Assembly (NCBI RefSeq): GCF_024298765.1
Contig: NZ_CP101210.1
Direction: 5' to 3' (one strand)
From: Escherichia coli
GTDB taxonomy: Bacteria > Pseudomonadota > Gammaproteobacteria > Enterobacterales > Enterobacteriaceae
DNA: 64,000 nt
The translations under genes and the position numbers were made by a program. The notes under the pieces are model-generated. The model searched no databases. It worked only from the letters and a program-made list of their open reading frames with translations, and was not told the origin of the DNA. Positions 3,208 through 55,525 of this stretch are shown here, piece after piece. The stretch's first letter is position 1. Every line of letters starts with the position of its first letter.

Positions 3208-3242
3208 AGTTCGGTTAAGTTCTTTAGTATGTGCATTTACGA

Positions 3243-35700: not shown

Positions 35701-36275
35701 CGCTTTATTACCATCCTCAGTTGATGCTGCAGCGCATAGCCCAGCTCTTTCGGAAGACGCTCACGCCGTATCCGCTCAATATTCTGTTTAAACGCCGTGG
35801 TCAGCGGCACCGCCATCGGGATTTTCACCACATCAATGGGGTAACGGTTTTTCCCGGCCACACGCTGCATGACATGCCAGCGGCCATTTTTCAGTTGCTG
35901 AATAAACGCGCCGGGAATACGACGGTTTCCCACCACAAGCACGCTGCCGCCACCTTTCAGGGCTGAACGCTGCCCCTTTTTACGACGCCTGCGTCGGGAC
36001 AGGACAATCCGCGCGTTACCCAGCTTTATTACGGGCAAATCCCCCCGGTTAACCTTGATTCTGGCCTGCGGATTTTTGACCGTGGCCCTTTTCAGCCAGG
36101 CCCTTTCCTTTACCAGTTTCCGGCGTACCTTTGTCTCACGGGCAACCTGTGACGCCGACTGCGATATCGCGGATGAAGCAACGCGGTTAATGGCCATTGC
36201 GGCGGCACCGGGCACCGCCGTTCTGCTGATACGGCTGAGGTTTTCAACGGCCTGCTCAAGACCTTTTATGGCCAT
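35697..36275 (-). CDS. Z: tail completion protein Z
   Basis: 192-aa ORF matching lambda gpZ. Confidence 0.93.
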   Translation of the reverse strand: MAIKGLEQAVENLSRISRTAVPGAAAMAINRVASSAISQSASQVARETKVRRKLVKERAWLKRATVKNPQARIKVNRGDLPVIKLGNARIVLSRRRRRKKGQRSALKGGGSVLVVGNRRIPGAFIQQLKNGRWHVMQRVAGKNRYPIDVVKIPMAVPLTTAFKQNIERIRRERLPKELGYALQHQLRMVIKR

Positions 36276-36286
36276 ACATCCCCCTT

Positions 36287-36640
36287 TCAGCGGCGACGGT
36301 TAACGGCAGGCGGTACGCCCCGCCCAAGCCAGAGATGACAGCTTCCGCCATCATCCGGCGAAATCCGGTCTATCCAGAAGTTTTCCTCACCGATGGTCAG
36401 CGTGTCGCCGCGCCGCAGCTGCCGCACATCATCAGTCCGGACAAACAGGGACGGGCTGGAGCCTTCAACGCGTACGCCCTGTCCGGCATAGCTGATATTT
36501 TCAGGGTCATCAAAAACACCACGTATTACTGCGCCGGACTGCTCACCGGATGTCATGGTGGCTGACGTTCCCATGTACCCGCGTATCGTTTCATCGGCGC
36601 GGGCAATGGCAGCATCGAACAGGTTATCGAAATCAGCCAC
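36287..36640 (-). CDS. FII: head-tail connector protein FII
   Basis: 117-aa ORF matching lambda gpFII. Confidence 0.93.
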   Translation of the reverse strand: MADFDNLFDAAIARADETIRGYMGTSATMTSGEQSGAVIRGVFDDPENISYAGQGVRVEGSSPSLFVRTDDVRQLRRGDTLTIGEENFWIDRISPDDGGSCHLWLGRGVPPAVNRRR

Positions 36641-36651
36641 AGCGCCTCCCG

Positions 36652-37047
36652 TTATTGCATTCTGGCCAGGCCGCGCTCTGTCATTTCAGCTGCCACACCG
36701 GCAGAGACACGGAACGCCGTTCCCGGCAGCACAAATGCCACAGCCTCATCCCGCGTGGCGTGAAGTGCATCAGTATGCAGCGTCACCAGTGCCACAACCG
36801 TGACCAGATCAGCCGTATCAGTCACGGTATCCGGCTGCGCTGATACCACCTCATTTTCATGTCCGGTCAGCGCATTTTCCGGGCTGACAGATGTGTCCTG
36901 ACCGGCAGCGTCATCCGTGTCATCAAGCTCCTCTTCCAGCTCTGCCACACGGAGCGCCAGTTCTTCTTTCGTCCCCGTCAGGCTGACATCACGGTTCAGT
37001 TGTTCACCCAGCGAGCGGAGACGGGCAATCAGTTCATCTTTCGTCAT
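36652..37047 (-). CDS. FI: DNA packaging protein FI
   Basis: 132 aa from MTKDELIARLRSLGEQLN... Confidence 0.9.
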   Translation of the reverse strand: MTKDELIARLRSLGEQLNRDVSLTGTKEELALRVAELEEELDDTDDAAGQDTSVSPENALTGHENEVVSAQPDTVTDTADLVTVVALVTLHTDALHATRDEAVAFVLPGTAFRVSAGVAAEMTERGLARMQ

Positions 37048-37088
37048 GGACTCCTCCACAGAGAAACAATGGCCCCGAAGGGCCATGA

Positions 37089-37877
37089 TTACGCCAGTTG
37101 TACGGACACGAACTCATCAGGGTCAGCCAGCAGCATCAGCGGTGCTGACTGAATCATGGTGAACTCACGCGCCGGATCGCCGGTGGTCACCCAGTTTTTC
37201 GGGTAACGGGCAGAGGCGTTAATGCCTTCGCGCTGTGCGTCCGCATCCTGAATGCAGCCATAGGTGCGCAGACCGCGTGCATGAGTGTTACCCAGCACCA
37301 TCGTGTTGTCCGGCAGGAAGTTCTTTTTGACGCCGTTTTCCACGTACTGTCCGGAATACACGACGATGGCCACATCGCCATACATCCCCTTATAGGACAC
37401 CGCTTTACCCAGGTCTTTCACCGCTGTCTCCAGCTCGGAATGAGAGCCGCGACGGGTATCCAGCTTCTCCTTGACGGCGTTGAAGGAACGGAACAGCGCC
37501 CAGCCTTTCGGATCAAACACGATGATATTCACCACGCCGCTGGCGTTCAGCGCGTAGGCTTCGATATCGTCGGTCGGGTCATACGTGGACTTGTCACGCT
37601 TGCTCCACTCCGTGCCGCCGGACTGCGTGATGTTGTTCGCCGCACTGCGGCCCATATCCACCTCAACCGGATCGAAGGCTTCACCGGTCATGGTGTATTT
37701 GCCCTTGAGCACGGCAGAAACTGCCTGCATCTCTTCGACCTGAGCAATGGCCAGCTCTTCGTCACGCATGTTCTGCAGGATGATGCGACGGCGGCGGTAA
37801 GCCGGGTCCGCCAGATTCTGCGGATCTTCATCCGGCAGGCGACGCAGGGTCATCTGCGGATTCACTTCATGCTTGGG
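37089..37877 (-). pseudogene. E: major capsid protein E, C-terminal portion (gene split by island insertion)
   Basis: Encodes ...PKHEVNPQMTLRRLPDEDPQ... to the E C-terminus; upstream in-frame sequence is island DNA with an immediate stop. Confidence 0.9.
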
Positions 37878-37879
37878 TT
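37870..37879. repeat. island left junction direct repeat (att core) tgcttgggtt
   Basis: Identical 10-mer recurs at 48754-48763 at the other E junction. Confidence 0.8.
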
Positions 37880-38013
37880 ACATGAGTCAAATATGAAAGG
37901 ATGTGAATGATTTGATTACGTTTTAGCTATAGAATTGAAATGGAAAATCCTTGAATGCAATACAACGTGCAATACATGGATGAAAACCATCACTCATTTA
38001 ACAAGAGGAATCT

Positions 38014-38919
38014 ATGCGCTCACCCAACAGAATGCATGAACGCTCAACATTTTATAAGTATATGTCGTTGAATACCGCGAAGATTGTTCTTGATTCATGC
38101 AGCCTTAGATGGAGTTCTCCGGTCCTATTTAATGACCCTTTTGATGTTCCAAGAGAAGTTATGCCTGGTATTAACGAAATTAATATTGGCAAAGCTTTAG
38201 CCCGCAAGTTAATAGCGGAGTTGATTACCCCCAGAGAAGACATACAAAATTTAAACCCTAGAATTAGAACAATGCTAAGTGATTTCCAAAAGTCATTTCC
38301 TTTAGGCATACCCGCAGGATTAATTGAAAGATTTCAAGAAATGGTAAACATTCCACCAGTTGGGATTGGCGCTCCTGCGGCAATACAAGAAATGAAAGAT
38401 ATCTGGCGAGGAATGCTTAATAACAGAAGGATTTTGTGTTTATCTGAGAGCCCTATAATCACTCCTATGTGGAATCACTATGCCGATAAATATAAAGGTA
38501 TAGTTATCGAATTTGATTGTGTAGACTTTCTGGATAGCGCTTGGTTAATAGCCAAACCTATGAAATACACAGATGAAATGCCTCTAACTCACACTGCTGA
38601 AGGGATGGCCGAGTTGCTTTTCATGCCAGACAATAAGTCAATTGAATATATCAATAATGAGATAATATTCATAAAAACAGAAGAATGGGCATATGAAAGA
38701 GAGTGGAGAATTTCAACCTACGCTAGGCCAAATAGCACTGGTCAATATAGCGACTTAAAATTTCACCCTTTTGAGTTAAAATCTGTAATACTTGGTCCTC
38801 TTTTTGATGCCAGCGAGTTCGATGAAGTCGCATCACTAGTTAAAATGTATCCAAGAGCGAAATTATTTAAAAGTTCATTTGGGAACGACAGAAAAATATC
38901 CATAGTACCACTACCTTAA
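38014..38919 (+). CDS. hypothetical protein, DUF2971-like (low-GC cargo gene)
   Basis: 301-aa ORF with GAGGA RBS; motifs FYKY...LRWSSPVLFNDPFD, MWNHYADKYKGIVIEFD, EREWRI recalled as DUF2971-like; family assignment from memory only. Confidence 0.6.
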   Translation: MRSPNRMHERSTFYKYMSLNTAKIVLDSCSLRWSSPVLFNDPFDVPREVMPGINEINIGKALARKLIAELITPREDIQNLNPRIRTMLSDFQKSFPLGIPAGLIERFQEMVNIPPVGIGAPAAIQEMKDIWRGMLNNRRILCLSESPIITPMWNHYADKYKGIVIEFDCVDFLDSAWLIAKPMKYTDEMPLTHTAEGMAELLFMPDNKSIEYINNEIIFIKTEEWAYEREWRISTYARPNSTGQYSDLKFHPFELKSVILGPLFDASEFDEVASLVKMYPRAKLFKSSFGNDRKISIVPLP

Positions 38920-38949
38920 AAGGTCAAATGCTTTTGACAAATAAAATCT

Positions 38950-38976
38950 ATCGCCAGTTTTACTGGCGACTTTTAA
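38950..38976 (+). terminator. hairpin terminator between convergent DUF2971-like gene and Nu1-like gene
   Basis: cgccagttttactggcg stem-loop followed by cTTTTaa. Confidence 0.35.
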
Positions 38977-39025
38977 GCAACAAAGAACCACCTAAGCACT
39001 CTTCCTACCTATGGTTTCATTTGTT

Positions 39026-39577
39026 TTAACTTCGCTGATTATCCTTGATATACCTTTCAGCCATATCTGGAATGTTATCTGAGATCTGGTAAGCTCGAAT
39101 AAATGCTTTACTGACCTCCATCTTAATGAAGTCCTGATACCGTTTTTCCATGCCAGGAAACTGTCGACAGATCGCAAGTGGAAGACTATCAATGATTGCT
39201 CCAACTTCCCCAGTTAATTTCGACAAGGCATAAGTCGCAAATGCAGTGTCAATTACCTCACCTGTTTCGCTGGCATTCTTCAGTTCCTGTGCGTCGGCCT
39301 GCGCACGCGTAAGTCGATGGCGTTCGTACTCAATAGTCCCTGGCTGGAGATCTGTCTCGCTGGCCTGCCGCAGTTCTTCAACTTCCCGGCGCAGCTTTTC
39401 GTTCTCAATTTCAGCATCCCTTTCGGCATACCATTTTATGACGGCGGCAGAGTCATAAAGCACCTCATTACCCTTGCCACCGCCTCGCAGAACGGGCATT
39501 CCCTGTTCCTGCCAGTTCTGAATGGTACGGATACTCGCACCGAAAATGTCAGCCAGCTGCTTTTTGTTGACTTCCAT
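39026..39577 (-). CDS. terminase small subunit homolog (Nu1-like chimera)
   Basis: 183 aa; residues 1-~103 essentially identical to the prophage Nu1 at 54397-54942 (winged-HTH cosB-binding domain), C-terminal ~80 aa diverged. Confidence 0.88.
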   Translation of the reverse strand: MEVNKKQLADIFGASIRTIQNWQEQGMPVLRGGGKGNEVLYDSAAVIKWYAERDAEIENEKLRREVEELRQASETDLQPGTIEYERHRLTRAQADAQELKNASETGEVIDTAFATYALSKLTGEVGAIIDSLPLAICRQFPGMEKRYQDFIKMEVSKAFIRAYQISDNIPDMAERYIKDNQRS

Positions 39578-39739
39578 TGTTCATTCCACGGACAAAAACA
39601 GAGAAAGGAAACGACAGAGGCCAAAAAGCTCGCTTTCAGCACCTGTCGTTTCCTTTCTTTTCAGGGGGTATTTTAAATAAAAACATTAAGTTACGACGAA
39701 GAAGAACGGAAACGCCTTAAACCGGAAAATTTTCATAAA

Positions 39740-39800
39740 TAGCGAAAATCCGCGCGCCTGACGCCCCGTAGCCTGTCAGATCGCCGGAAAGGACCCGCCA
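39740..39800. other. cos-like site of the island (variant cosN)
   Basis: Aligns to prophage cos at 55100-55165; the 12-mer equivalent to the cohesive end (39755-39766, cgcctgacgccc) differs at 5/12 positions from aggtcgccgccc. Confidence 0.7.
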
Positions 39801-39822
39801 GCCAGAGCGGGCCCTAATTTCA

Positions 39823-40206
39823 TCAACCAATCAGCTTATAGCGACCATCCCGTGCATTGCGGCGTACACGCTCAATCTTGAGGCATAGCGCCGCATCTGG
39901 CTTTTTTGGGACAGGTACGCGGCAATATTCAGAAGCGCGAGGAATATTATTTATCCAGTCGATCACTTCACTTAAATACCAGGCCTTACGCCCTTCCGTA
40001 ACCTGCACACGCTCCGGGAACTCTCCACTAGCCTCAAGGTTTAGCAGTGTACGCCGACTCAGGGTTGTAATTTCCATCACCTGATTCATATCAACAAGGC
40101 GCTCGCTTAAACACATTTTGTCAGCGATAGCTTTTAATTCCTCTACAGCTGGATTCGGGTACATCATTTCGGCAATTGGCTTAAGGTCATTGTAATCATT
40201 CTGCAT
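39823..40206 (-). CDS. AlpA/MerR-like HTH protein
   Basis: 127-aa ORF; central motif ITTLSRRTLLNLEASGEFPERVQVTEGRKAWYLSEVIDWIN resembles AlpA-family HTH. Confidence 0.6.
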   Translation of the reverse strand: MQNDYNDLKPIAEMMYPNPAVEELKAIADKMCLSERLVDMNQVMEITTLSRRTLLNLEASGEFPERVQVTEGRKAWYLSEVIDWINNIPRASEYCRVPVPKKPDAALCLKIERVRRNARDGRYKLIG

Positions 40207-40217
40207 TGTATCCCCCT

Positions 40218-40559
40218 TTACACACGAGCCAGCGGCTGAACAGAAATACCTGAGCCAACAAACGCTGCAATCTTTACTGACAGTTCTTTTACAGACTCAG
40301 GCCAGTTCAGAGCATCAACATTTAAGACACCTGTCTTATAGACCTGAGCCTGTGTTTTTTTCGCGGTGTCGATTTGTACAGCGGAAACATAAACCGCTTT
40401 ACCTACGCTCGAACCATCCCATACCACCAGTGCACCTGTTGCATCTTCCTGCATCAGTGGCGTAAATGCAGGAATTACCCCTTTATTAGCTGAAAATATC
40501 CCCAGCGTAGTCACCAGTGCTTCAGTGCCAGCCATGAGTTCAGTGTAATGAGTAGCCAT
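40218..40559 (-). CDS. head decoration protein, gpD-like (divergent)
   Basis: 113 aa; shared pattern with lambda D (TPLM...WDG...YK.G...WPE...AF.G..IS) at ~30% identity. Confidence 0.7.
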   Translation of the reverse strand: MATHYTELMAGTEALVTTLGIFSANKGVIPAFTPLMQEDATGALVVWDGSSVGKAVYVSAVQIDTAKKTQAQVYKTGVLNVDALNWPESVKELSVKIAAFVGSGISVQPLARV

Positions 40560-40568
40560 TGCTCCCCC

Positions 40569-41615
40569 TTAGCCAATGCGAACGGTAACAAAACGATTGA
40601 TGCGGGCCGGTATTGGCTGTGGTGCTGAATGTGTCTGCACATATTCAATAGCCGGATCACCAGGCACAATATAGTTTTTCGGTGCAAGTTCGGCTTTAGT
40701 CAGCCCCATTCGGATTAGCTCCGGATCCTGAATACCGCCATAGGCGACAATCCCCTGAAGAGCCGTATTGCCAAGCACCATCAAATCAGGATCAAGGAAA
40801 TGTTTTTCAGTTCCGTCCTCGTCGGTATAACGCCCGCTGTATACAACAATCGCAACATCGCCCATATACCCTTTAAAACTCACCGAATCACCAAGGTCTT
40901 TAAGGGCCGTTTCCAGTTCGGAATTAGAGCCACGACGGGTATCCAGAGCCTCTTTTATCGCTCTGAATGAACGGTATTTCTTCCATACATTACCGCCCAT
41001 AATGATGATATTAGTGACGCCCTCACTAAATTCTGCGTAGCTCTCAATATCATCATTTGGATCAAAAGTTTCTTTATCCTTACCTGACCACTCAGCACCG
41101 CCAGACTGAGTGATGATATTTTGTGGTTTAATATTCCAGTCCAGCTCATAACGTTCAATACCATCGCCCTCAATGATATTTTTCCCCGTTGTGATTGCCT
41201 GAACGGCAAGCCATTCAATACGTGCACGAATAGATTTAGCCTGATTTACAATCGCCTGTTTAACTTTAATATTACGCGCTCCAAAAGCATTGTATTGCTC
41301 AGGTGATACACCAGCAGGGCGCACAGCTAACTTATTTGGATCAATGCTGCTTTTCGGCTTCATATAGCCTGGACGAATTGTTTTTGATTCGTACCCTTCG
41401 TCACGTGAAACTTTACTACCCACCATAGGAGAACAAAACGCTGCAATTGGGATATTTGGATCGTCGATTGTATCAAGAATAATATCGCGCGATTCAAACA
41501 TTACCGAGCGAGTAAAAAACAAACTGGTAAACAACGCATTTAGTTGTTTTTGTACATCTACAGCATTAACCACCTGTACAAGCTGGGTAGGCGAATATAA
41601 ATCAACCATACGCAT
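40569..41615 (-). CDS. major capsid protein, gpE-like (divergent)
   Basis: 348 aa from MRMVDLYSPTQL (RBS AAAGAGG); ~50% identity to prophage E over ITQSGG...DTRRGS.SELETA...GDVAIVVYSG...MVLGNT. Confidence 0.85.
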   Translation of the reverse strand: MRMVDLYSPTQLVQVVNAVDVQKQLNALFTSLFFTRSVMFESRDIILDTIDDPNIPIAAFCSPMVGSKVSRDEGYESKTIRPGYMKPKSSIDPNKLAVRPAGVSPEQYNAFGARNIKVKQAIVNQAKSIRARIEWLAVQAITTGKNIIEGDGIERYELDWNIKPQNIITQSGGAEWSGKDKETFDPNDDIESYAEFSEGVTNIIIMGGNVWKKYRSFRAIKEALDTRRGSNSELETALKDLGDSVSFKGYMGDVAIVVYSGRYTDEDGTEKHFLDPDLMVLGNTALQGIVAYGGIQDPELIRMGLTKAELAPKNYIVPGDPAIEYVQTHSAPQPIPARINRFVTVRIG

Positions 41616-41826
41616 CCTCTTTGCATTCATTAAAAATAATTGTGGATATATGCTATCACCGATATTTGTCATGCGAATACATGCAACCGAGTGCAATGTT
41701 GTATAAAGTTTTGGGATAACAACTTCAGCGCGGATAATTAGTGTTAATATCTTAACTCCCTTTGGTCGGGATTTATGTAGCATGCCGGAAAATTTATTTT
41801 TTTCCGGCCTTTTTTATTGGCAATAT

Positions 41827-42276
41827 TTAAAACGGAATATCATCTCCCCATTGCTCATTATCTCCCACTGGTGGATGGCTTCCTTGCTGATCTGCCTGTT
41901 GTTTTGCTCTGTTCAGTGCGTCAGTAGCCTGACCCTGTTGACCTTTTTTGCCGCCCGGTCGCACCGTTCGCGCACTGATTACGCTGTCTGCGATAACCTG
42001 CCAGCCCTGCCGCGTTTCACCGTTCTGTCCAGTCCACTGGCTCACCTGCATATTACCCGCCACGCTCAGGAGTTCGCCTTTGTGATGCTTTGCCAGCGCG
42101 TCGGCTTGTCTGCCAAACGCCAGGACAGATAACCACATCGTCGCCGTTCCGTCATCTGCCTGGCTGCATGGCAAAGATACCGCCATCCGTGCCAGTGTCA
42201 TGGGTGTTCCCTTGCTGGTATGTTTTACCTGTGGGTCGTCCACCAGCCGCCCGTAAGCTGCTATTTGCGCCGTCAT
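41827..42276 (-). CDS. ssb: single-stranded DNA-binding protein
   Basis: 149-aa ORF with OB-fold pattern, Gly/Gln-rich linker and acidic C-terminal tail ...GDDIPF. Confidence 0.8.
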   Translation of the reverse strand: MTAQIAAYGRLVDDPQVKHTSKGTPMTLARMAVSLPCSQADDGTATMWLSVLAFGRQADALAKHHKGELLSVAGNMQVSQWTGQNGETRQGWQVIADSVISARTVRPGGKKGQQGQATDALNRAKQQADQQGSHPPVGDNEQWGDDIPF

Positions 42277-42287
42277 GCTGCCTGCTC

Positions 42288-42530
42288 TCAGGACTTAATA
42301 TTGATGGTTGTCACTTCCTCCGCTTCGGCAATCTCCCGTTCGGTCAGCGTGGCAAAGTTTGCAGCCGCCGTTGTCATGAATGCGCTTATCAGTTCGGGAT
42401 GTGCTTTCGCGTATCCTTCCCCGGCGTTGCGGTCTATTGCCTTAATCGCCACCCTTAGCCAGTGTTCAGCCATATCAAGGGCGCGGTAATGTGGCTTTAT
42501 ATGTTTGTTCAGTTTTCCTGATGTGTGCAT
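42288..42530 (-). CDS. hypothetical protein
   Basis: 80-aa ORF in operon between origin and ssb. Confidence 0.5.
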   Translation of the reverse strand: MHTSGKLNKHIKPHYRALDMAEHWLRVAIKAIDRNAGEGYAKAHPELISAFMTTAAANFATLTEREIAEAEEVTTINIKS

Positions 42531-42559
42531 TTTTATTTTTACCCCCTCGTTTAAAAAGT

Positions 42560-42810
42560 TTTTTGTGCACCACCACCTTGTCTACCTTGTCTACCTGATT
42601 AGTTATCAGGCCAGTAATGGCGCGGGTTTCAGGGAGGTAGACAGCCCCAAATAGCTGTCTACCTCATCTCTACCCGTCTCCTTACCTGTCTACAAAAATG
42701 GGTAGATAAGGTAGATAACAGGTAGACAGTGAAAAATAGTTATCTACCTGCATTAATGCATTGAAATAAAAGTATTTTATTTCAGTCAGGTAGACAAGGT
42801 AGATAACCAT
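42560..42810. repeat. iteron cluster, putative island origin of replication
   Basis: >12 copies of GGTAGAYA / TRTCTACC in both orientations immediately downstream of the primase gene. Confidence 0.8.
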
Positions 42811-42819
42811 TGCCATTTT

Positions 42820-44571
42820 TTATAAAAACGCATCGCAATCATCAGTAGTCGTTGCGTTGGTCTGCGTGACTCCCTTAACTTTTCGCGTAATATATTCATA
42901 TCCGTAAACTTTCGCCGCTGACCTCATAGCCTTTCCGAACTCATTCACGCTCAAACATTTCCCCTTTCCTGTATATGCCATGAAGGCCATATAGACACGG
43001 TAAAGGCTGTTTCTGGTCGTGTACTTCACGGTGTCACCACCACCGCCCATCATTAGCCCACGAGCTTCCTCCAGAAACTCCAGCGCCGCGCAAAGCTCAA
43101 CAACCGGATCCGTTTGCTGCTTTATTGCCAGAGCTTCATCACCGTCACGCTGTTCCAGTAATAAAGCCCGTGCCTTTTCAGGGTCAGCAAAATTAGCCAG
43201 CAAGCGGCGGATAATTACGGGGATTTCTGCCGCTATCTTTTCCGGTAATTCCTTGTCTTTTTCGTCCTCCCTTACAATGTTGTCGAACCGGAAAATCACC
43301 CGACGGCGTGACACACCTCCGGCCCGTTCGGTAAAGATCATCGGGTCGTTATTGGTTGCCAGTACCACCGCCCTTATTATCGTCGTGAATCGCTTCTCAT
43401 ATTTCGGGTTAATTTCAACGGGATCGCCTCCCGTGATTTTCTTGATGCCCGTGCCTTCCCCCGTATATTTCGGCTGATCGGCAAGGACGATAAGACGACT
43501 CCCGACAACCTGCGCACGCCCTCCTGCATCATCGAGTGATGTCATCTCTGCGCTTACGGTGTTCTGTTTGCCAGCAAGCAGGGTGGCAATATGGGTAAAT
43601 GTACTCTTACCGCTTCCCCCGTCTCCGGTGGCCTCAATGAACATCTGCCAGTCGTACCGGTTCGCCATAATCATGTACAGCGCGGCACATATACGCATCA
43701 TCTTGCGCGGGTCTTTTCCGGCTGCGTGCTCAAGCCATTTATGAAAGTTTGGCGCGTTATCGCGGATGTTCTCCCCTGGTGCTGGTGGCGTGTACTCAAT
43801 GCCGTTGTGCGTGGTGATCCAGTTCTCCGGCGTGTGCGGGGAAAATTCCCCCGTTTTCAGGTCAAGCGCACCATTGGCGAACGGCAGCAAATCGCCGGAC
43901 GGCTCGCCCATTGGTTCGGCAATAACTTTTAACGCTTCAACGGCGTTATTGATCACGCGTTTGCTGAAAGTGGCCCTGTGCTCTGAATAGATCGCCACCA
44001 TTTCGCGGCTCAGCTCCATTGTGCTGATCGGACACCATACCCCGCCGCGCCATACGTGAACGATTTCACTTTCCGGATGCACACAAACGCCATCAAAGCG
44101 CTCGGCAAGCAGCTGCGCGCGCTCACTGTCTGCCATCTGTGAAAGTTGCGCCTTTTGCTTCGTCGGAAGATTAAGCACCAGGCTTTCCCCACGCTCGCAT
44201 TCCTCTTTGAGTCGCGGCAACTGGTCGGATAAATCCACTGGGCTGATGTCAGTAATCCCCGCGTATTCGTGTACGGTCTTCACTCCAGCCACAGCCAGTA
44301 ACGTAACAATCTGCGTCATGCTGTGCTCTGTGATATGTCCTGCGCGGTAAACACGCACACACTGACGATCTTCATCAATGATCCGGTAATCGGTGATGTT
44401 TTTCAGTTGCTCATCAGCCAACACGACAGGCGGCACATCGTCGGCGGCAATATGTTTACCCGCCCATTCCTGCCACTCTTTCGCATGGCTCCACGCATCA
44501 CTACCTGCAAAGATGATTATCTCTGTCAGTCTGTCGCGTGGCTGTTTTTTTAAGTTCGGTGCCAGTTTCAT
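42820..44571 (-). CDS. primase/helicase-like replication protein (P-loop NTPase, D5/P4-alpha-like)
   Basis: 583-aa ORF with Walker A GDGGSGKST and primase C-terminal-like region. Confidence 0.8.
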   Translation of the reverse strand: MKLAPNLKKQPRDRLTEIIIFAGSDAWSHAKEWQEWAGKHIAADDVPPVVLADEQLKNITDYRIIDEDRQCVRVYRAGHITEHSMTQIVTLLAVAGVKTVHEYAGITDISPVDLSDQLPRLKEECERGESLVLNLPTKQKAQLSQMADSERAQLLAERFDGVCVHPESEIVHVWRGGVWCPISTMELSREMVAIYSEHRATFSKRVINNAVEALKVIAEPMGEPSGDLLPFANGALDLKTGEFSPHTPENWITTHNGIEYTPPAPGENIRDNAPNFHKWLEHAAGKDPRKMMRICAALYMIMANRYDWQMFIEATGDGGSGKSTFTHIATLLAGKQNTVSAEMTSLDDAGGRAQVVGSRLIVLADQPKYTGEGTGIKKITGGDPVEINPKYEKRFTTIIRAVVLATNNDPMIFTERAGGVSRRRVIFRFDNIVREDEKDKELPEKIAAEIPVIIRRLLANFADPEKARALLLEQRDGDEALAIKQQTDPVVELCAALEFLEEARGLMMGGGGDTVKYTTRNSLYRVYMAFMAYTGKGKCLSVNEFGKAMRSAAKVYGYEYITRKVKGVTQTNATTTDDCDAFL

Positions 44572-44867
44572 TTTTTGCCCCTGAATGCGTTAATCATGCT
44601 TTTCATTTTCTGGATGTTTCCCCGCGCTTTTTCCCTGCTGATGGGCTTACTGCGGGGTGCGGCATATACCAGGGAAAAATCACGCCGGAACTGATAAACA
44701 GGCATCACGCAGTCATAGCTATACCCCTCACGACGGTAAGTGATGCGCCGTTCTGCCACGCCTTTAATCGTTACCGTGCCGCCGTATTTATCGCGGTAAA
44801 TATCGCCGTTCATAAATTCAGGCCGAGCGGGGCCGCTGGCAATAAAGCCAGAATTTTTCATTTCCAT
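44568..44867 (-). CDS. hypothetical protein
   Basis: 99-aa ORF overlapping primase start by 4 nt. Confidence 0.55.
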   Translation of the reverse strand: MEMKNSGFIASGPARPEFMNGDIYRDKYGGTVTIKGVAERRITYRREGYSYDCVMPVYQFRRDFSLVYAAPRSKPISREKARGNIQKMKSMINAFRGKK

Positions 44868-44884
44868 ATTATTTATTCCTCGAC

Positions 44885-45106
44885 TTAACTCGACTTATTT
44901 GATAGCTGGGCACTATTTATTGCGTCATTGAGTTTTTCTGCTGCTTCATCAATAAGTGACAACAGGCCATAAGCAATATTTGCATCTTCATTGTCATTTA
45001 TGCAATCAAGCCACATATTTAATATTGCTTTTGCTGAATTATTTAAAGTTAATGAACTTTCTGCACATGCTAACAATTTAAAAAAGACTTCCCGTTCTGT
45101 ATTCAT
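44885..45106 (-). CDS. hypothetical protein
   Basis: 73-aa low-GC ORF in the island leftward operon. Confidence 0.5.
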   Translation of the reverse strand: MNTEREVFFKLLACAESSLTLNNSAKAILNMWLDCINDNEDANIAYGLLSLIDEAAEKLNDAINSAQLSNKSS

Positions 45107-45298
45107 TTAATCCCCCACCAGCTTACTTTCTTCCTCAATCAAAAAACTAGCGACACTTCCCGAAAGACGCGCCAGTAGGCTCGCCAGTGCGGATATATCA
45201 GCATCTGTAATTTTGTTCGGGTATACCTCAAGAAGGCGGCAAATAATTTCTGTCTGGTGCGCACGTTCAGCGGCTTCGTGTAATGTGATTTCCTGCAT
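45107..45298 (-). CDS. hypothetical protein
   Basis: 63-aa ORF, start/stop abutting neighbours. Confidence 0.5.
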   Translation of the reverse strand: MQEITLHEAAERAHQTEIICRLLEVYPNKITDADISALASLLARLSGSVASFLIEEESKLVGD

Positions 45299-45483
45299 TA
45301 ATGCACCTCTTTTAATTCATACACTGCTGAAATAATGACTTGTGATAAGCCATATTCTGATGATTCGCTTCTCACCGCAGCAATAGCCGTCTGAACATTA
45401 ACAGCCTTCACATTCTGAGCGATACCAATTGTGTGGCCTATTGGGTTAACAGCTCGGGCAAATACACGGAAGGTTTTAAGCAT
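45298..45483 (-). CDS. hypothetical protein
   Basis: 61-aa ORF in operon. Confidence 0.5.
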   Translation of the reverse strand: MLKTFRVFARAVNPIGHTIGIAQNVKAVNVQTAIAAVRSESSEYGLSQVIISAVYELKEVH

Positions 45484-45673
45484 GACTCACTCCCTGGCGG
45501 ATTTTTGCAGCGAATACAGCAACACAACCGGACGGGCAACGGCTACGCGCTTCGCGTTCCGTCCAGGCGGTTACGTGGATGATTTGAGATTCTCCGGCAC
45601 TCAGTGCCAGAAAACGCCACACAAAGGCCGTTTGTGTGTGTACAAGGTGTGGTATATGATTTACAGCAACCAT
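45476..45673 (-). CDS. hypothetical small protein (first gene of leftward operon)
   Basis: 65 codons from internal ATG preceded by AGGAG at -7; rest of the 243-aa ORF-track call rejected. Confidence 0.35.
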   Translation of the reverse strand: MVAVNHIPHLVHTQTAFVWRFLALSAGESQIIHVTAWTEREARSRCPSGCVAVFAAKIRQGVSHA

Positions 45674-45764
45674 AACGGCTCCTAGTTTACGTTGTTGGTT
45701 AGACGCCCCGTATGTGTTCCCAGCACTGCGGGGCGTTGCTCTTTGTATTTCAACAATCCTTTCG

Positions 45765-45797
45765 GTGTGTTTCATGTTATGAGCGCATGAAACACAC
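45765..45797. promoter_or_regulatory. operator-like inverted repeat in divergent promoter region
   Basis: tgtgtttcatg-N9-catgaaacaca perfect 11-bp arms; third half-site tgaaacacac at 45832-45841. Confidence 0.6.
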
Positions 45798-45863
45798 GTC
45801 AAGGCTTTTTGTATTTCTTTTTTTGTGTATACTGAAACACACCGATGATTAGGAGTTTCAGAA

Positions 45864-46169
45864 ATGGCAACGGCTAACAAAAACGCAAAATCACAACTGA
45901 CAACTGTCAGAGTCCCACTAGATGTTATGCAAGGGATGGAATCCGTTAAGCTGGACGGTGAAAGCAATGCCGGATTTATCGTAACCGCCATGCGCGGTGA
46001 AATCGCCCGCCGCCAGGCAGAAGGAAGCGGAGAAAATCCCCTCGTGTCTTCACTGGATGCCTTAGCTAAGGTCGAACAAATCGGCATCAAGGCAGCGGAG
46101 GAAATCGGGCAACTCGTAGCCGTCGCTCGTGAAGAACTCCAGCGGCGTAAAGCCAAAGAATCTGAATAA
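45864..46169 (+). CDS. small DNA-binding protein, ribbon-helix-helix-like, putative island regulator
   Basis: 101-aa ORF with AGGAG RBS, divergent from the replication/packaging operon; N-terminus LTTVRVPLDVMQGMESV resembles RHH. Confidence 0.55.
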   Translation: MATANKNAKSQLTTVRVPLDVMQGMESVKLDGESNAGFIVTAMRGEIARRQAEGSGENPLVSSLDALAKVEQIGIKAAEEIGQLVAVAREELQRRKAKESE

Positions 46170-46519
46170 TTAGTATCAGCGCCGTGATGTGAGTAACTAC
46201 GGCGCATTGCTATGTAAATACTGGCAATAAACAGAAAAGGTAGTTCTACTCCGAATAATTTTATCTGACACTACTCCTGAACTAACATGCGCTTATCTTA
46301 CAGGATATAAATATAAATCCATAAAATCACGATTAAATAAAGTCGCTCCAAACATAAACCACACCCAACGCTTAACAAGATAGCAACAAACAGGTAAATA
46401 ACTTGCAGAAATATTTATCGCAAGGATTATCATTATTAATGACAAATCACTTTACCAAGTCATTCCCCTCTCTTATCATAAAGAGAAAGTAATAAATAAG
46501 TTAAGGGAGTTAGAATGCT

Positions 46520-47056
46520 ATGAATCTAAAAAAAATAGCCACAAACACAAAAAACAAGATAACAGAAACATTTAATAAACTTATATTAGAGGCATCTAAA
46601 ACCCCCACACAAGATGAAATTAAAATACTTGAGAGAAGGAGTAAGAAGTTTAATTACTCCTTTTTCTCATACGCAGTCACAGGAGCTATAATAGTTTTTT
46701 GCTCTCAACCATTAATTAAATACGCAAACCCAATACTTATTTTATTGAGTGGTCTGTTACTGTCTATCATCATTATCATTCTCAGAATGATTTATATTTC
46801 ACAAGCGAATGCATCATGGACAACCAAAAAACGCTCACATGTACTAGTTCATTTTCTTTCTGCATGTTTCATAGCATCAACATTGACGTTGCTATATCAG
46901 GCTTACGATAATAACATCACACACAAATTGTACTGTAAAAATATACAACAACTTATTGAAAAAAGGATAAAAACAGAAAAAAACATCAGCATATTCAGTG
47001 GGATGCAATGCACCCCGGTATATGATTACTCTTTATTTGGATTTAATCTCTTATAA
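46520..47056 (+). CDS. hypothetical membrane protein (very low GC cargo)
   Basis: 178-aa ORF with ~3 predicted TM helices; RBS GGGAG; AT-rich. Confidence 0.6.
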   Translation: MNLKKIATNTKNKITETFNKLILEASKTPTQDEIKILERRSKKFNYSFFSYAVTGAIIVFCSQPLIKYANPILILLSGLLLSIIIIILRMIYISQANASWTTKKRSHVLVHFLSACFIASTLTLLYQAYDNNITHKLYCKNIQQLIEKRIKTEKNISIFSGMQCTPVYDYSLFGFNLL

Positions 47057-47125
47057 AGAATGTTATTACTGATTTGAGTACAAATTCTCAAATCAGTAAT
47101 TCATAATATTTTATTCTGAGATAAT

Positions 47126-47362
47126 TTAAACTACCCACTCACCTCGAATCCATGCCTGCACTTCTGAAAGACGATATGCAACAGCAGTGGAACCAATCTT
47201 GATCCGCTTAGGAAATTTTCCTTCCTTCTCCAGCTTCCAGCGTGTGCTGTTCGCAAGAGTGGTTAGCTCCCGACATTCTTTCTCACGGATCATTCGGTCA
47301 ATGTTAGGAATGTACTCCAGACCCTTTTTATCAACAATTGCCATTTTTTTCATGTTAACCAA
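47126..47362 (-). CDS. alpA: AlpA-family transcriptional regulator/excisionase
   Basis: 78-aa ORF; motif ELTTLANSTRWKLEKEGKFPKRIKIGSTAVAYRLSEVQAWI; immediately downstream of int. Confidence 0.8.
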   Translation of the reverse strand: MVNMKKMAIVDKKGLEYIPNIDRMIREKECRELTTLANSTRWKLEKEGKFPKRIKIGSTAVAYRLSEVQAWIRGEWVV

Positions 47363-48590
47363 CCTTTTGTTTGAGGATTGTCACTTTTGAATCAGCACCT
47401 GCGATGCTATTGAGATATGTAGTCCAGAGTTCCAGAGCATCCAGTTTTTTAGCCATAAACTTACTCCGGTTGTAAACACCTGCCACGCCAGGTAGCGCAT
47501 GGCCTAACAGTTGTTCTACTACATAAAATTCAACACCGAGATCACTTAGATGAGTAGATAGCGTTCTTCTAAGGTCGTGTAGTGACCATTGTTTTTCATG
47601 GCCCAAACGTTTACCGATTTTCCCCCCAATCTTGCTTACGCTTTCTCTAATTCGCAGACTTCCCAGCACATAACCAGTATGTTTTGTCTCTTCGTGAACA
47701 TCCGTTACCCACTGTCGTAGAATTTCAGGTACTGGTCTGACGATTTCAACACCAGTTTTTGAGTGATCTTTTGGTACAGTCCAAACCCAACTTTCGAGAT
47801 CCCATTCGCTCCATTCTGATAATCGGGCTTCACTCATTCGACATCCAAATACTGTACAAAGCACAAACATTTTTCGCGTGTATTCAGACATTAGTTTTAA
47901 ATCAGGCTCGACAAAAATTGCCTTCCAGAGCTGGCCGAGTTCGGCTTCATCCAGAACCCGATCCCGCTTACCTGCAATCTGCCCCACATCACTCATGCGC
48001 AAATCCTTTAAAGCATCACACGTCGCGTACTGGCGTACCCGACAAAAACGAAGAGCTAATTTAGTGTCAGAAAAAACATACGCCGCCATAACTGGTGCAT
48101 TACGTTTAATTCGGTCAAAACAGTCCAGCCATTCATATAGGTGAGTGTCATTTACGGGCAAATGACCGATATAGGGAAAGATATGCTTTCGAAATCTGCC
48201 AAGCGTTACAGCATGAGTTTTACGACGCACCTTACAGTAATTTTCATACCAGTAATTTAGTGCATCCTCCACTGTAACTGGCTTTAAGCGTTCTTCAGCC
48301 TGAATCTTAATCTGGATACGCGGATCACGTTTGTCAGCCAACCAACCACGGCACTCGTCGCGCTTTTCCCTTGCCTGTTTGAGTGACATATCAGGATATT
48401 TACCCAACGTTAGCCAGACCGGAGCAGCCCGGCCACCTGCTAACCTGTAGAAGAAAACAAAGCTCACAGCCCCTTTAGTACTCACACGAATAGAAAGCCC
48501 CTTTCCATCAGCAATGGTGATCTGCTTTTCTCTGGGTTTCCCCAGATATCCTTTAAGCGCTTTGTCGCTCAGTTTGTTCTCGCCAGCCAT
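47355..48590 (-). CDS. int: tyrosine site-specific integrase (P4-type)
   Basis: 411 aa from MAGENKLSDKALKGY; catalytic R...HDLRRT...LLGH...Y motifs; adjacent to right island junction. Confidence 0.9.
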   Translation of the reverse strand: MAGENKLSDKALKGYLGKPREKQITIADGKGLSIRVSTKGAVSFVFFYRLAGGRAAPVWLTLGKYPDMSLKQAREKRDECRGWLADKRDPRIQIKIQAEERLKPVTVEDALNYWYENYCKVRRKTHAVTLGRFRKHIFPYIGHLPVNDTHLYEWLDCFDRIKRNAPVMAAYVFSDTKLALRFCRVRQYATCDALKDLRMSDVGQIAGKRDRVLDEAELGQLWKAIFVEPDLKLMSEYTRKMFVLCTVFGCRMSEARLSEWSEWDLESWVWTVPKDHSKTGVEIVRPVPEILRQWVTDVHEETKHTGYVLGSLRIRESVSKIGGKIGKRLGHEKQWSLHDLRRTLSTHLSDLGVEFYVVEQLLGHALPGVAGVYNRSKFMAKKLDALELWTTYLNSIAGADSKVTILKQKVG

Positions 48591-48752
48591 TTTTAGCCCC
48601 AAAAAGCAATACAAGCTGCAATACAGAGATGATTGCAACACACAGATAACGAGGAAAATTCAGTGAAAGCACCAGATAAACTTATTCTTTATTATCAAAA
48701 GATTAAGTGTAAAAACCAGCAACTACACGAAAGCCTCAGAAAGCCATGCTAA

Positions 48753-48998
48753 GTGCTTGGGTTTGACATATCCCGGCGTAAATTCAGAGGTGGAGCCGCC
48801 ACGGGAACGGATAACCTCACCGGAAACAATCGGCGAAACGTACAGCGCCATGTTTACCAGTCCCGGAATTTGTGAGAGATAGACTTTCTCCGTAGTGAAG
48901 GGATAGCTCTCACGGAAAAAGAGACGCAGAAACAGCGGATCAAACTTAAATTTCTGCTCATTTGCCGCCAGCAGCTGGGCGGTTGTGTACATCGACAT
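48753..48998 (-). pseudogene. E: major capsid protein E, N-terminal portion (82 codons) truncated by island
   Basis: MSMYTTAQLLAANEQKFKFDPLFLRL...GYVKPKH then island-derived LAWLSEAFV and stop. Confidence 0.9.
48754..48763. repeat. island right junction direct repeat (att core) tgcttgggtt
   Basis: Identical to 37870-37879. Confidence 0.8.
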
Positions 48999-49053
48999 AA
49001 AAAAATCCCGTAAAAAAAGCCGCACAGGCGGCCTTTAGTGATGAAGGGTAAAG

Positions 49054-49386
49054 TTAAACGATGCTGATTGCCGTTCCGGCAAACGCGGTCCGTTTTTTCG
49101 TCTCGTCGCTGGCAGCCTCCGGCCAGAGCACATCCTCATAACGGAACGTGCCGGACTTGTAGAACGTCAGCGTGGTGCTGGTCTGGTCAGCATCAACCGC
49201 CAGAATGCCAACGGCAGCACCGTCGGTGGTGCCATCCCACGCAACCAGCTTACGGGTGGAGGTATCCAGCATCAGCGGGGTCATTGCAGGCGCTTTCGCA
49301 CTCAATCCGCCGGGCGCGGTTGCCGTATGTGCCGGGTCACTGTTGCCCAGCGGCTGGTAATGGGTAAAGGTTTCTTTGCTCGTCAT
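49054..49386 (-). CDS. D: head decoration protein D
   Basis: 110 aa from [12 protein letters not shown], matches lambda gpD. Confidence 0.95.
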
Positions 49387-49395
49387 AAACATCCC

Positions 49396-50695
49396 TTACA
49401 CTGGTGTGTTCAGCAAATCGTTAACGGCATCAGATGCCGGGTTACCTGCAGCCAGCGGTGCCGGTGCCCCCTGCATCAGACGATCCAGCGCAGTGTCACT
49501 GCGCGCCTGTGCACTCTGTGGTGCAGCTGCCAGAATGCGGCGGGCCGTTTCCACGGTCATACCGGGGGTTTCGGCCAGCACGCGTGCCTGTTCTTCGCGT
49601 CCGTGAGCCTCCTCACAGTTGAGGATCCCCATAATGCGACTGTTTTCTGCCGCAACCGCTGCGGTGATCTGCGCGTTCACGTCCGGCTGCGCCGCGCTGG
49701 CGTTCTCGCCCTCCGTCGCTTGCACCACGCCAGTAACGTCAGCCTGCGAAGCAGTGGCTGAAACAGTTGTTGATTGAGTCTCTTTGGTCATTCGCCCTCC
49801 TGAGAGACGGGATTTACGTGCATCCAGTGCATCACGCATGACGGTGATCGCATCGGTACTGTTAACAAGTTCATCAGCCAGTCCGGCATCAATGGCCTCC
49901 TGACCGCTGTACACTGCAGCCTCGGTATCCAGCACAGCCTGCACGGACAGGCCGGTATATGCCGACACCTTCTGTGCAAACATCTGGCGGGTTGCGTCCA
50001 TCCGGGACTGCAGTGTCTCCCGGACGTCATCCGGAAGATGGCTGTAGGGATTGCCATCCACCTTATGGCTGCCGCTGTAAATCAGCGTGATTTCCACACC
50101 CTGTTTCTCCAGGGCAGCACCGTAATTACTGTGAGCCATCATGACGCCGATGGAGCCTGTCCGGGCGGTCTGCGTGACCAGACGCCGGGAGGCGGCACTG
50201 GCAAGCAGCTGACCTGCACTGCAGTTCATGTCGTTGGCCAGCGCCCATACCGGTTTTATGTCACGCACACGGGCGATGATGTCAGCGCAGTCAAATGCCC
50301 CCGCCACCATTCCGCCTGGCGTGTCCATATCGAGCAGAATGCCGTCCACCATCGGGTCGCTGGCAGCCTGTTGCAGACGGGCGATAATGCCGTTGTAACC
50401 GGTCATCCCCGAGTACGGCTGCAGCGCCCGCGTCCGGCTGACCAGCGTGCCGGACACCGGCAGCACGGCGATGCCGTTCATGACCTGATAACTGCGGGCC
50501 TGTCGTGGTCCGTCATCATCACCGGATAATGCCAGCGTCGCGAGTGCCTCCTGGGCAGTCAGGCTGTCGCCGGACACCGCATCCGTCAGGCGGCTGATCC
50601 CAAGCTGGCCTGCAAGCGCACAAAAGAAAACCCGCGCATAGGCGGGTTCAAGCATCAGCGGCTCATTAAAGGCCATGCTGGCAATATGCGGGAGA

Positions 50696-54396: not shown

Positions 54397-54422
<26 letters not shown>

Positions 54423-54942
54423 TCAGCAACCCCGGTATCAGTTCATCCAGCGCGGCTGCTTTGTTCATAGCTTTGATGATATCCCGTTTCAGGAAATCAA
54501 CATGTCGGTTTTCCAGTTCCGGAAAACGCCGCTGCACCGACAGGGGGATCCCGTCGAGAATACTGGCAATTTCACCTGCGATCCGCGACAGCACGAAAGT
54601 ACAGAATGCGGTTTCCACCACTTCAGCTGAGTCTCTGGCATTCTTCAGTTCCTGTGCGTCGGCCTGCGCACGCGTAAGTCGATGGCGTTCGTACTCAATA
54701 GTCCCTGGCTGCAGATCTGTCTCGCTGGCCTGCCGCAGTTCTTCAACTTCCCGGCGCAGCTTTTCGTTCTCAATTTCAGCATCCCTTTCGGCATACCATT
54801 TTATAACGGCGGCAGAGTCATAAAGCACCTCATTACCCTTGCCACCGCCTCGCAGAACGGGCATTCCCTGTTCCTGCCAGTTCTGAATGGTACGGATACT
54901 CGCACCGAAAATGTCAGCCAGCTGCTTTTTGTTGACTTCCAT
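54397..54942 (-). CDS. Nu1: terminase small subunit Nu1
   Basis: 181-aa ORF matching lambda Nu1 end to end. Confidence 0.95.
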
Positions 54943-55099
54943 TGTTCATTCCACGGCCAAAAACAGAGAAAGGAAACGACAAAGGCCCAAAAGTTCGTTT
55001 TCAGCACCTGTCGTTTCCTTTCTTTTCAGGGGTTATTTTAAATAAAAACATTAAGTTACGACGAAGAAGAACGGAAACACCTTAAACCGGAAAATTTTC

Positions 55100-55330: not shown

Positions 55331-55525
55331 ATGTCAACGAAGAACAGAACCCGCAGAACAACAACCCGCAACATCCGCTTTCCTAACCAAATGATTGAAC
55401 AAATTAACATCGCTCTTGAGCAAAAAGGGTCCGGGAATTTCTCAGCCTGGGTCATTGAAGCCTGCCGTCGGAGACTAACGTCAGAAAAGAGAGCATATAC
55501 ATCAATCCAGAGTGATGATGAATAA
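55331..55525 (+). CDS. hypothetical protein of lambda right end
   Basis: 64-aa ORF in sequence matching the lambda genome right end. Confidence 0.7.
   Translation: MSTKNRTRRTTTRNIRFPNQMIEQINIALEQKGSGNFSAWVIEACRRRLTSEKRAYTSIQSDDE

Follow-up and report, generated by a model that had tools for sequence, protein, structure and literature searches.

The region at positions 45655–46169 of the window analysed here (64,000 nucleotides of the Escherichia coli contig NZ_CP101210.1, to which all coordinates refer unless another contig or locus is named) is best read as the immunity, or maintenance, switch of a Gram-negative phage-inducible chromosomal island (PICI), comprising an autoregulated ribbon-helix-helix (RHH) repressor with its operators and an antisense RNA; a probability of about 0.65 is given to this reading. 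The predicted repressor is a 101-aa protein of the YlcI/YnfO family, encoded at 45864–46169 on the + strand (RefSeq annotation; an AGGAG ribosome-binding site precedes the gene by 8 nt), and the gene points away from a 65-aa icd-like gene at 45476–45673 on the − strand (RefSeq; NF033153, 63.7 bits), the first gene of the leftward operon. Repeated motifs lie on the promoters between the two genes, and they co-vary with the RHH protein and not with AlpA or Icd, which makes them very probably its operators. The operator-plus-RHH block is exchanged as a unit between otherwise near-identical islands.

Repeats on the divergent promoters

The intergenic region contains a perfect inverted repeat with 12-nt arms, GTGTGTTTCATG at 45765–45776 and CATGAAACACAC at 45786–45797, separated by a spacer of 9 nt, and a third copy, TGAAACACACCGA at 45833–45845, is complementary at 13 of 13 positions to 45762–45774. 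When the 190-bp intergenic region was shuffled with its dinucleotide composition kept, a perfect inverted repeat of at least 11 nt arose in 6 of 5000 shuffles and one of 12 nt in 0 of 5000, so that a chance origin of the repeat is unlikely; of the four exact copies of the 10-mer TGAAACACAC in the 64 kb, three lie within 80 bp at the switch. The inverted repeat and a third half-site had already been described in the initial annotation, between a leftward small-ORF/primase operon and a rightward ORF of 101 aa, and both are present where they had been placed, with arms slightly longer than had been given; the operon does run from the icd-like gene through four small open reading frames (ORFs), the last of them DUF4222, to the primase gene.

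These repeats lie on divergent promoters, in support of the operator role suggested there, and three putative operators were delimited. O1 (TCGGTGTGTTTCATG, 45762–45776) is the left arm of the inverted repeat and lies over the -10 and +1 of the leftward promoter; O2 (CATGAAACACACG, 45786–45798) is the right arm and lies in the spacer of the same promoter beside its -35, with its centre about 22 bp from that of O1; and O3 (ACTGAAACACACCGA, 45831–45845), which is conserved, extends across the end of the rightward -10 and over the start site predicted for that promoter. The leftward promoter itself (45774–45802, − strand) is sigma-70-like in a consensus scan, with the -35 TTGACG at 45802–45797, a 17-nt spacer, the -10 TAACAT at 45779–45774 and a predicted start at about 45767; it would drive the icd-like-to-primase operon, and the same -35/-10 layout is readable in the other specificity classes. 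The rightward -10 of the RHH gene, TATACT at 45828–45833 (+ strand), was read from the conserved GTGTATACT / GTGTATAAT, and the sequence upstream of it is T-rich. Two further candidates were rejected, namely an extended -10 for the rightward promoter, where the register is GTG rather than TGn, and a fourth half-site, TGTGTTCC, in a terminator loop at 45713–45723, which islands of other operator classes contain as well.

Co-variation of repeats and RHH protein across islands

The comparison of the locus drew on about 20 islands related to this one, among them the model PICI EcCICFT073, and a contig scan for relatives with a single peptide pattern gave 7 loci. A recurrent layout was observed, in which int, alpA, a variable slot and the RHH gene are followed by the oppositely directed icd-like gene, small ORFs, DUF4222 and a gene for a primase or a RepA helicase; many E. 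coli islands, which occupy several integration sites, have this layout, as do loci of Xenorhabdus, Photorhabdus, Enterobacter and Cedecea and EcCICFT073 itself. Every locus has a near-consensus leftward -35 (TTGAC/A) and repeats over the leftward core promoter, usually with an extra copy at the rightward -10.

The repeat sequence varies between loci in step with RHH strand residues 11–15, and not with AlpA or Icd. The strand QLTTV goes with the repeat GAAACACAC in the window, L015, L016, four Xenorhabdus species and Photorhabdus; QSLTA with GTGTAAG / CTTACA in three E. coli islands and Enterobacter soli; QQKTA with GGTGCAAGTCACC in E. coli and Cedecea; and QALKA with GGTGTGGCCCAC, as two direct copies 23 bp apart, in EcCICFT073. 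A GGTG..CA frame surrounds a variable 5-nt centre in all classes, and in the QLTTV class the core of the arms, GTGTGTTTC, is unchanged from E. coli to Xenorhabdus and Photorhabdus while flanks and spacer change.

Natural swaps separate the RHH protein from its neighbours. The window, L015 and L016 have common operators and a common RHH class despite three AlpA types and two Icd types; conversely, L015 and L018 agree in AlpA (WP_001206975, identical in both), in DUF4222 and in integration site, yet their operators differ, each set fitting its own RHH class. Different operators were also observed in L004 and L017, which have AlpA WP_000387403 in common, and in L002 and L005, which have Icd WP_001368837 in common. 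A shared AlpA or Icd with different operators, and the converse, argues against AlpA, Icd or a host factor as the binder. In a sliding comparison of L015 with L018, identity stays at 96–100% across the flanks of the switch (800 bp on its left side, about 900 bp on its right) and at 78–100% in the remainder of the locus; only over the operator region and the RHH N-domain does it drop to 42–66%, and over the RHH C-terminus and the next small ORF it is about 75–80%, a pattern that reads as the signature of an exchangeable immunity region.

The 101-aa YlcI/YnfO protein

The 101-aa protein matches the NCBIfam model of the YlcI/YnfO N-domain (NF041551) at 62.6 bits, with a cutoff of 30, over residues 9–50. 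Its AlphaFold2 model, built from a 31-sequence alignment (predicted local distance difference test score 83.7), has an extended N-terminus, helices at 19–28 and 35–54 and a single long helix at 59–100, thus showing the RHH topology of an N-terminal beta-strand and two helices. The RHH-like nature that had been proposed for this ORF is in agreement with the modelled strand-helix-helix N-domain, and the models support an RHH domain at about residues 9–52 followed by a C-terminal helix (59–100) as a putative oligomerisation domain. A helix-hairpin-helix C-terminus, suggested by a profile search of Protein Data Bank sequences (Hef, E = 0.017), was dropped because the model gives one continuous helix.

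Membership of the RHH fold was also judged on sequence: a relation to some characterised member was sought in which the Arg-x-Pro of the strand and the turn G-x-S-x-N would fall in register. An hhalign comparison with P22 Arc was marginal (E = 2.5e-4, probability 43%), with the invariant R16-x-P18, here R16-V-P18, aligned on Arc R13-W14-P15, and the comparison with Mnt gave no significant match. A Pfam scan of the protein gave nothing significant, the only hint being PSK_trans_fac at E = 0.079, and some of its homologs bear the UniRef name 'Arc-like DNA binding domain'. The base-contacting strand residues of Arc are Q9, N11 and R13, and in the hhalign register the invariant R16 and the variable residues 12 and 14 would correspond to Arc R13, Q9 and N11. 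Related islands have YlcI/YnfO forms of 57–59 aa without the C-terminal helix; Mnt consists of an RHH domain and a C-terminal helix, and the short helix-less forms resemble Arc. A type II toxin-antitoxin pair with an RHH antitoxin is a co-transcribed operon of two genes, a layout not seen here, where the RHH gene and the icd-like gene point away from each other and have separate promoters. Searches of the openly accessible literature gave no relevant report of a function for YlcI/YnfO or of an RHH repressor in PICIs.

Predicted antisense RNA over the icd-like leader

The block between the icd-like start codon and O1 is conserved in all loci and on the + strand folds into two hairpins; we read it as a cis-antisense RNA of about 85 nt, functionally comparable to sar of phage P22, an element absent from the initial annotation. 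The predicted RNA (45655–45752, + strand) has a -10-like TATGAT at 45655–45660 and a body at about 45667–45751. The loop of hairpin 1 presents the anti-Shine-Dalgarno sequence CUCCU; hairpin 2 is GC-rich (45703–45736), comes after a conserved GGUUAGA and runs into a U-rich tail, so that it is terminator-like. The predicted RNA is complementary to the leader, the ribosome-binding site and the start codon of the icd-like gene. The RNAalifold consensus of the + strand reaches -25.4 kcal/mol with 23 pairs, of which 9 show compensatory changes, and that of the − strand -7.0 kcal/mol with 7 pairs; taken alone, the window sequence folds at -33.6 kcal/mol on the + strand (z = -3.7), the − strand giving z = -1.7. 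At a fixed distance upstream stands TATGAT, TATAAT or TATGCT, and TGGTATGAT, which is extended-10-like, is present in most E. coli loci.

A covariance model made from the alignment found exactly one copy per island at 68–85 bits, always antisense to an icd-like or ash start, and it also matched loci outside the training set (L019, L020, L023 and EcCICFT073, 68–81 bits); no further match was found in the window. A search with all Rfam families gave no match over 36000–50000 at E up to 1, and C4 (RF01695) and isrK (RF01394) gave none in 45350–46550 at E up to 10; the positive control, L020, scored 77.6 and 66 bits.

Variants of the proposed switch in related islands

In EcCICFT073 (L022 8474–9053; CFT073, NC_004431.1 1380473–1381052), a 59-aa YlcI/YnfO gene is divergent from the icd-like gene, and the switch has the two direct GGTGTGGCCCAC sites and the antisense RNA element. 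The small genes there carry late-added RefSeq tags (C_RS30120 and C_RS30125) and are not discussed in the accessible PICI papers.

Unannotated Arc-like RHH ORFs of 57–59 aa (MSTPLEKRSPPYQMRLPEDF...) were observed in L019 (3330–3503), L020 (3684–3857) and L023 (3752–3931), which are O157-type PICIs and another embedded PICI, L023 being an unannotated Logan contig; these ORFs have palindromic sites of their own, ATGGTAATTACCAT, present twice and at the same position in the slot. Different repressor types thus occupy one locus beside the same icd/antisense block. RefSeq (PGAP) places an opposite-strand 'Icd-like' pseudogene over the RHH ORFs of L019 and L020, and these pseudogene calls are probably mis-annotations. 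In L020, genuine C4 and isrK RNAs lie in the leftward leader ahead of icd: at 3215–3553 and 3239–3424 the leader and antisense element are fused to an 'ash family' ORF containing isrK and C4, and a second icd-like gene follows, so that one island combines RHH, antisense-RNA and P4/P1-type RNA layers. With the C4 and isrK RNAs in L020 and the alternative Arc-like RHH genes and palindromes elsewhere, the slot would behave as an immunity slot.

Alternative readings

AlpA-family genes flank the region in every locus, and AlpA is the demonstrated regulator of EcCICFT073, where it activates the genes downstream of alpA (PMC6092414; PMC11773190), so the repeats might be sites for AlpA or for another island or host factor, with the RHH gene as an unrelated neighbour. 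This is nevertheless very improbable, as identical AlpA proteins go with unrelated repeats in the pairs L015/L018 and L004/L017 and three AlpA types go with the same repeats; a host factor would need a constant motif, and the motif differs in every class; and sites that overlap core promoter elements are in the position of a repressor, not of an activator. The suggestion that the inverted repeat works as a hairpin, be it terminator, attenuator or cruciform, can draw on the perfect 12-nt arms around a 9-nt loop and on read-through transcripts from the alpA side, which would contain both arms, yet it is scarcely credible: neither strand has a U-tract after the repeat, both predicted start sites lie inside or beyond it, and the EcCICFT073 sites are direct repeats, with orientation and spacing varying in other classes, which indicates that the repeated motif is conserved and not an ability to pair. 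It is unlikely, too, that the RHH protein binds O1–O3 in a capacity other than that of an induction repressor, as an activator, a directionality or packaging accessory, or an antidote-like brake on the toxic Icd-like protein with no part in the life-cycle decision of the island; the packaging variant gains from the YlcI proteins of lambdoid prophages adjoining cos, whereas O2 in the promoter spacer and O1 over the -10/+1 form a classical repression geometry, L020 has immunity RNAs (C4 and isrK) in this very slot, and the block exchange resembles that of a phage immunity region.

For the conserved fold upstream of the icd-like gene, a 5'-untranslated element of the icd-like mRNA or a DNA-level element is a fairly unlikely substitute for an antisense RNA. 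Hairpins exist on both strands, the element lies in the predicted leader of the leftward transcript, and the consensus scan passed no + strand promoter there; against this stand the pair types over 16 sequences (49 G.U on the + strand versus 1 A.C), the fuller consensus fold of the + strand, its U-rich tail, which occurs on that strand only, and the -10-like hexamer conserved upstream at a fixed distance. The immunity switch with an RHH repressor and an antisense RNA is preferred, and several observations weigh against it. The antisense promoter consists of no more than a conserved -10-like hexamer within the icd coding sequence, and its conservation could be a protein-coding constraint; the rightward promoter has no good -35 and was not flagged by the consensus scan. 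The operators lie 20–100 bp from the N-terminal codons of the RHH gene, so that the co-variation could partly reflect linkage and not recognition, and L003 and L005 have the same strand, QQLNARF, yet sites that agree only in TGAAT, so that residues outside the strand must also contribute. Moreover, over-expression of AlpA alone induces excision and replication of EcCICFT073 (PMC6092414), which has the same module; the RHH protein is therefore no absolute master lock and at most a maintenance repressor that AlpA-driven or read-through transcription can override, and 'master repressor', as suggested in the initial annotation, is as yet too strong a label.

Proposed mechanism

In the mechanism proposed for the switch, RHH dimers would bind 13-bp pseudo-symmetric sites of the form GGTG-N5-CA.., with Arg16 reading the constant GGTG and the variable residues 12 and 14 reading the class-specific centre. 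RHH proteins are obligate dimers that place a two-stranded sheet in the major groove of repeated sites, and the 13-bp repeats at intervals of 22–23 bp, whose sequence co-varies with strand residues 12–15, are indirectly in keeping with such a mode of binding. O1 and O2, 22 bp or about two helical turns apart, would be occupied cooperatively, the C-terminal helix serving oligomerisation as in P22 Mnt. RNA polymerase would thereby be blocked at the strong leftward promoter, which would leave the icd-like and replication genes silent. O3, as it overlaps the rightward -10 and predicted start, would give negative autoregulation of the RHH gene, and the antisense RNA would act as a second lock by pairing with the ribosome-binding site and AUG of leaky icd-like mRNA.

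Induction would probably bypass this lock and not inactivate it. Transcription would enter from the int–alpA side, activated by AlpA and in this embedded island also supplied by Q-antiterminated helper late read-through (as proposed in PMC10111431), and would cross the cargo and RHH genes in the antisense direction before continuing into the icd–primase operon; such a bypass fits the induction of EcCICFT073 by over-expression of AlpA alone. The wider proposal, that RHH protein, class-specific operators and antisense RNA form the immunity system of E. coli-type Gram-negative PICIs, the model EcCICFT073 among them, with heteroimmune classes set mainly by residues 12 and 14 and with AlpA or helper read-through transcribing over the lock, is offered tentatively, at somewhat less than even odds.

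The island and its setting

The switch belongs to a 10.9-kb island (37866–48763) that splits the lambda-like major capsid gene E of a prophage into an N-terminal fragment at 48723–49025 and a C-terminal fragment at 37089–37865, both on the − strand and in the same orientation as int, and the island is bounded by a 10-bp direct repeat with the att core TGCTTGGGTT at 37870–37879 and 48754–48763. Read from the right end leftwards, with genes on the − strand where nothing else is given, the order is int, alpA, the 178-aa ORF (+), the 101-aa ORF (+) and the icd-like gene, and beyond it three small ORFs, the DUF4222 gene, the primase gene, an 80-aa ORF and the gene for a single-stranded DNA-binding protein (SSB), while the left part has gpE-like, gpD-like, second AlpA-like helix-turn-helix and Nu1-like terS genes, followed by a PDC-S31 gene (+). 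The island thus has the integrase, AlpA and primase/replication module between att sites that characterise Gram-negative PICIs (range about 10–15 kb), and, being inserted within a helper capsid gene and co-oriented with it, it falls into the site group E:Phage_cap_E; it is a helper-embedded PICI of the published '11capE'/E:Phage_cap_E type (Tommasini et al., PMC10111431) and a relative of EcCICFT073 (PMC6092414). Helper-phage induction, excision and packaging are known from experiments on relatives (PMC6092414, PMC10111431). The alpA gene (47126–47353, − strand; RefSeq annotation and profile match), of the excisionase/activator family, is context here, and its product is evidently not the binder of O1–O3, since islands with identical AlpA have different operators.

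Several further elements were observed along the island. A terminator-like hairpin, CACACAAACGGCCTTTGTGTG then GCGTTTTCTG, at 45618–45638 (− strand) is found on the sense strand of the icd-like ORF, within its 5' part; islands with the same Icd type keep the hairpin, and it could be an attenuator of the leftward operon. Directly downstream of the primase gene, in an AT-rich gap at 42634–42749, two iteron-like inverted repeats sharing GGTAGA(C/T)A, with the pairs GAGGTAGACAGC/GCTGTCTACCTC and AGGTAGATAAC/GTTATCTACCT, are probably the replication origin of the island. The Nu1-like small terminase gene is at 39026–39577 with a copy of the cos-proximal repeat alongside, a 15–16-nt inverted repeat AGAAAGGAAACGACA(G)..(C)TGTCGTTTCCTTTCT at 39602–39658, whose 15-nt arms recur in the cos-proximal repeat of the helper at 54967–55023; with terS and the shared arms, the island appears to have captured the cos/terS region of its helper. 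The helper prophage has its own 64-aa YlcI gene at 55331–55525 (+ strand), divergent from the Nu1/nohD terminase gene at 54397–54942 (− strand) across cos, so that YlcI/YnfO genes stand divergent beside an operon start in helper and satellite alike. At the far island end, a 301-aa ORF (38014–38919, + strand) matches the PADLOC candidate defence family PDC-S31 (E = 1.8e-32), and in the sister island L001 (NZ_CP029164), of which the regulatory region is 100% identical, DUF262 and HEPN genes take the place of this ORF; judging by such gene content, this end is a defence-cargo hotspot.

The AT-rich cargo cassette

A 178-aa protein gene at 46520–47056 (+ strand) follows the RHH gene. It had been described as very AT-rich, with three transmembrane segments and no recognisable family, and this description holds: the GC content is 31% against 44.7% for the island, hydropathy gives three hydrophobic segments (residues 48–66, about 70–92 and 107–126), and searches of Pfam, NCBIfam, PHROG and PADLOC gave no family, the only Pfam hint being DUF443 at E = 0.0011. 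A promoter-like site was found by consensus scan at 46451–46479, and a terminator-like hairpin follows the gene at 47065–47100. The gene lies in an AT-rich cassette (46215–47100, + strand, about 31–34% GC) at the place held in other islands by a 57–69-aa basic ORF. After the RHH stop codon, a hairpin GCGCCGT..ACGGCGC (46179–46205, + strand) is kept in EcCICFT073 and the O157-type islands; homology with other islands ends just past it, at GCATTGCTATG (46204–46214), and at 46204–46217, where other islands begin the basic ORF (MQDNTMTDKEL...), the window reads ATG-TAA. The end of homology and the ATG-TAA indicate that the 178-aa gene belongs to a cassette that replaced the usual occupant, with the left junction there.

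Homologs of the 178-aa protein are near-identical E. coli copies only in a word-indexed search, and a few more at 26–36% identity in an exhaustive search; the one at 36% sits 66 nt behind a different RHH gene in L023, another capsid-gene-embedded island, and the others lie in ordinary chromosomal neighbourhoods, which shows from the mixed contexts that the family is not island-specific. The protein is, on this evidence, apparently replaceable cargo behind the repressor gene, and its most likely time of action would be the quiescent state. The exclusion or abortive-infection role put forward in the initial annotation is a hypothesis that draws its support from context; co-expression with the repressor in that state would be compatible with exclusion.

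Meaning of the proposed switch

Systems in which an RHH repressor has its operators on divergent promoters are known, while the role of such a system as an exchangeable immunity module of Gram-negative PICIs with a cis-antisense RNA, present yet not remarked on in the model island, appears to be undescribed in the searchable literature. The present field model for Gram-negative PICIs has an activator only, AlpA. If the reading given here is true, the model island would have a defined 200-bp switch of RHH repressor, three operators and antisense RNA, and the uncharacterised YlcI/YnfO family would gain its first function; there would also be a handle on satellite silence, on the coexistence of same-AlpA islands and on the evolution of specificity classes. 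Of 5,426 complete E. coli genomes, about 1,500 contain matches to the switch, and the comparison flags unannotated RHH genes where PGAP overwrites them with opposite-strand pseudogenes.

Comparison with known systems

The immI region of phage P22 contains the RHH repressors Mnt and Arc, the sar antisense RNA and ant. The island switch resembles it in having small RHH repressors at close divergent promoters, with putative operators over core elements and, as predicted here, autoregulation; the long helix of the 101-aa form is comparable with the C-terminal oligomerisation helix of Mnt, and the 57–59-aa forms are similar to Arc. In both systems a short cis-antisense RNA, predicted in the island, covers the ribosome-binding site of the regulated gene. 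The island operon differs in that its icd-like gene is followed by replication genes, so that the first gene is not an antirepressor, and no Ant domain is found in the operon; sequence similarity is marginal to Arc and absent to Mnt, and the element is a satellite and not a phage. The immI region of P1/P7 and the immunity of P4, where C4 or CI RNA lies upstream of icd or kil, are alike in the Icd-like first regulated gene with an RNA predicted at its translation start, and the related island L020 has its bona fide C4 and isrK in the equivalent position; in the window, by contrast, neither C4 nor isrK was matched, even at E = 10 (45350–46550), and a predicted protein repressor is present besides.

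Among satellites, EcCICFT073 has int, alpA, icd-like, DUF4222, primase, SSB, capsid E-like and gpD-like genes in common with the island, and its published model has AlpA as sole regulator, with the existence of a repressor stated as unclear (PMC6092414). The '11capE' helper-embedded PICI (PMC10111431) is similar in its size of about 10.9 kb, its position in the capsid gene, its co-orientation and its four-zone organisation; the zone between alpA and the replication genes is described there as a 'Bro zone' with Bro-network proteins and immunity RNAs, and the text of that paper contains no YlcI, YnfO or DUF3950 and mentions no RHH protein or operators. The Stl repressor of Staphylococcus aureus pathogenicity islands and Rpr of Gram-positive PICIs are likewise encoded divergent from an excision/replication operon and vary in specificity among islands; they are larger helix-turn-helix proteins relieved by specific helper-phage proteins (PMC6092414), whereas the switch proposed here would be bypassed by transcription instead.

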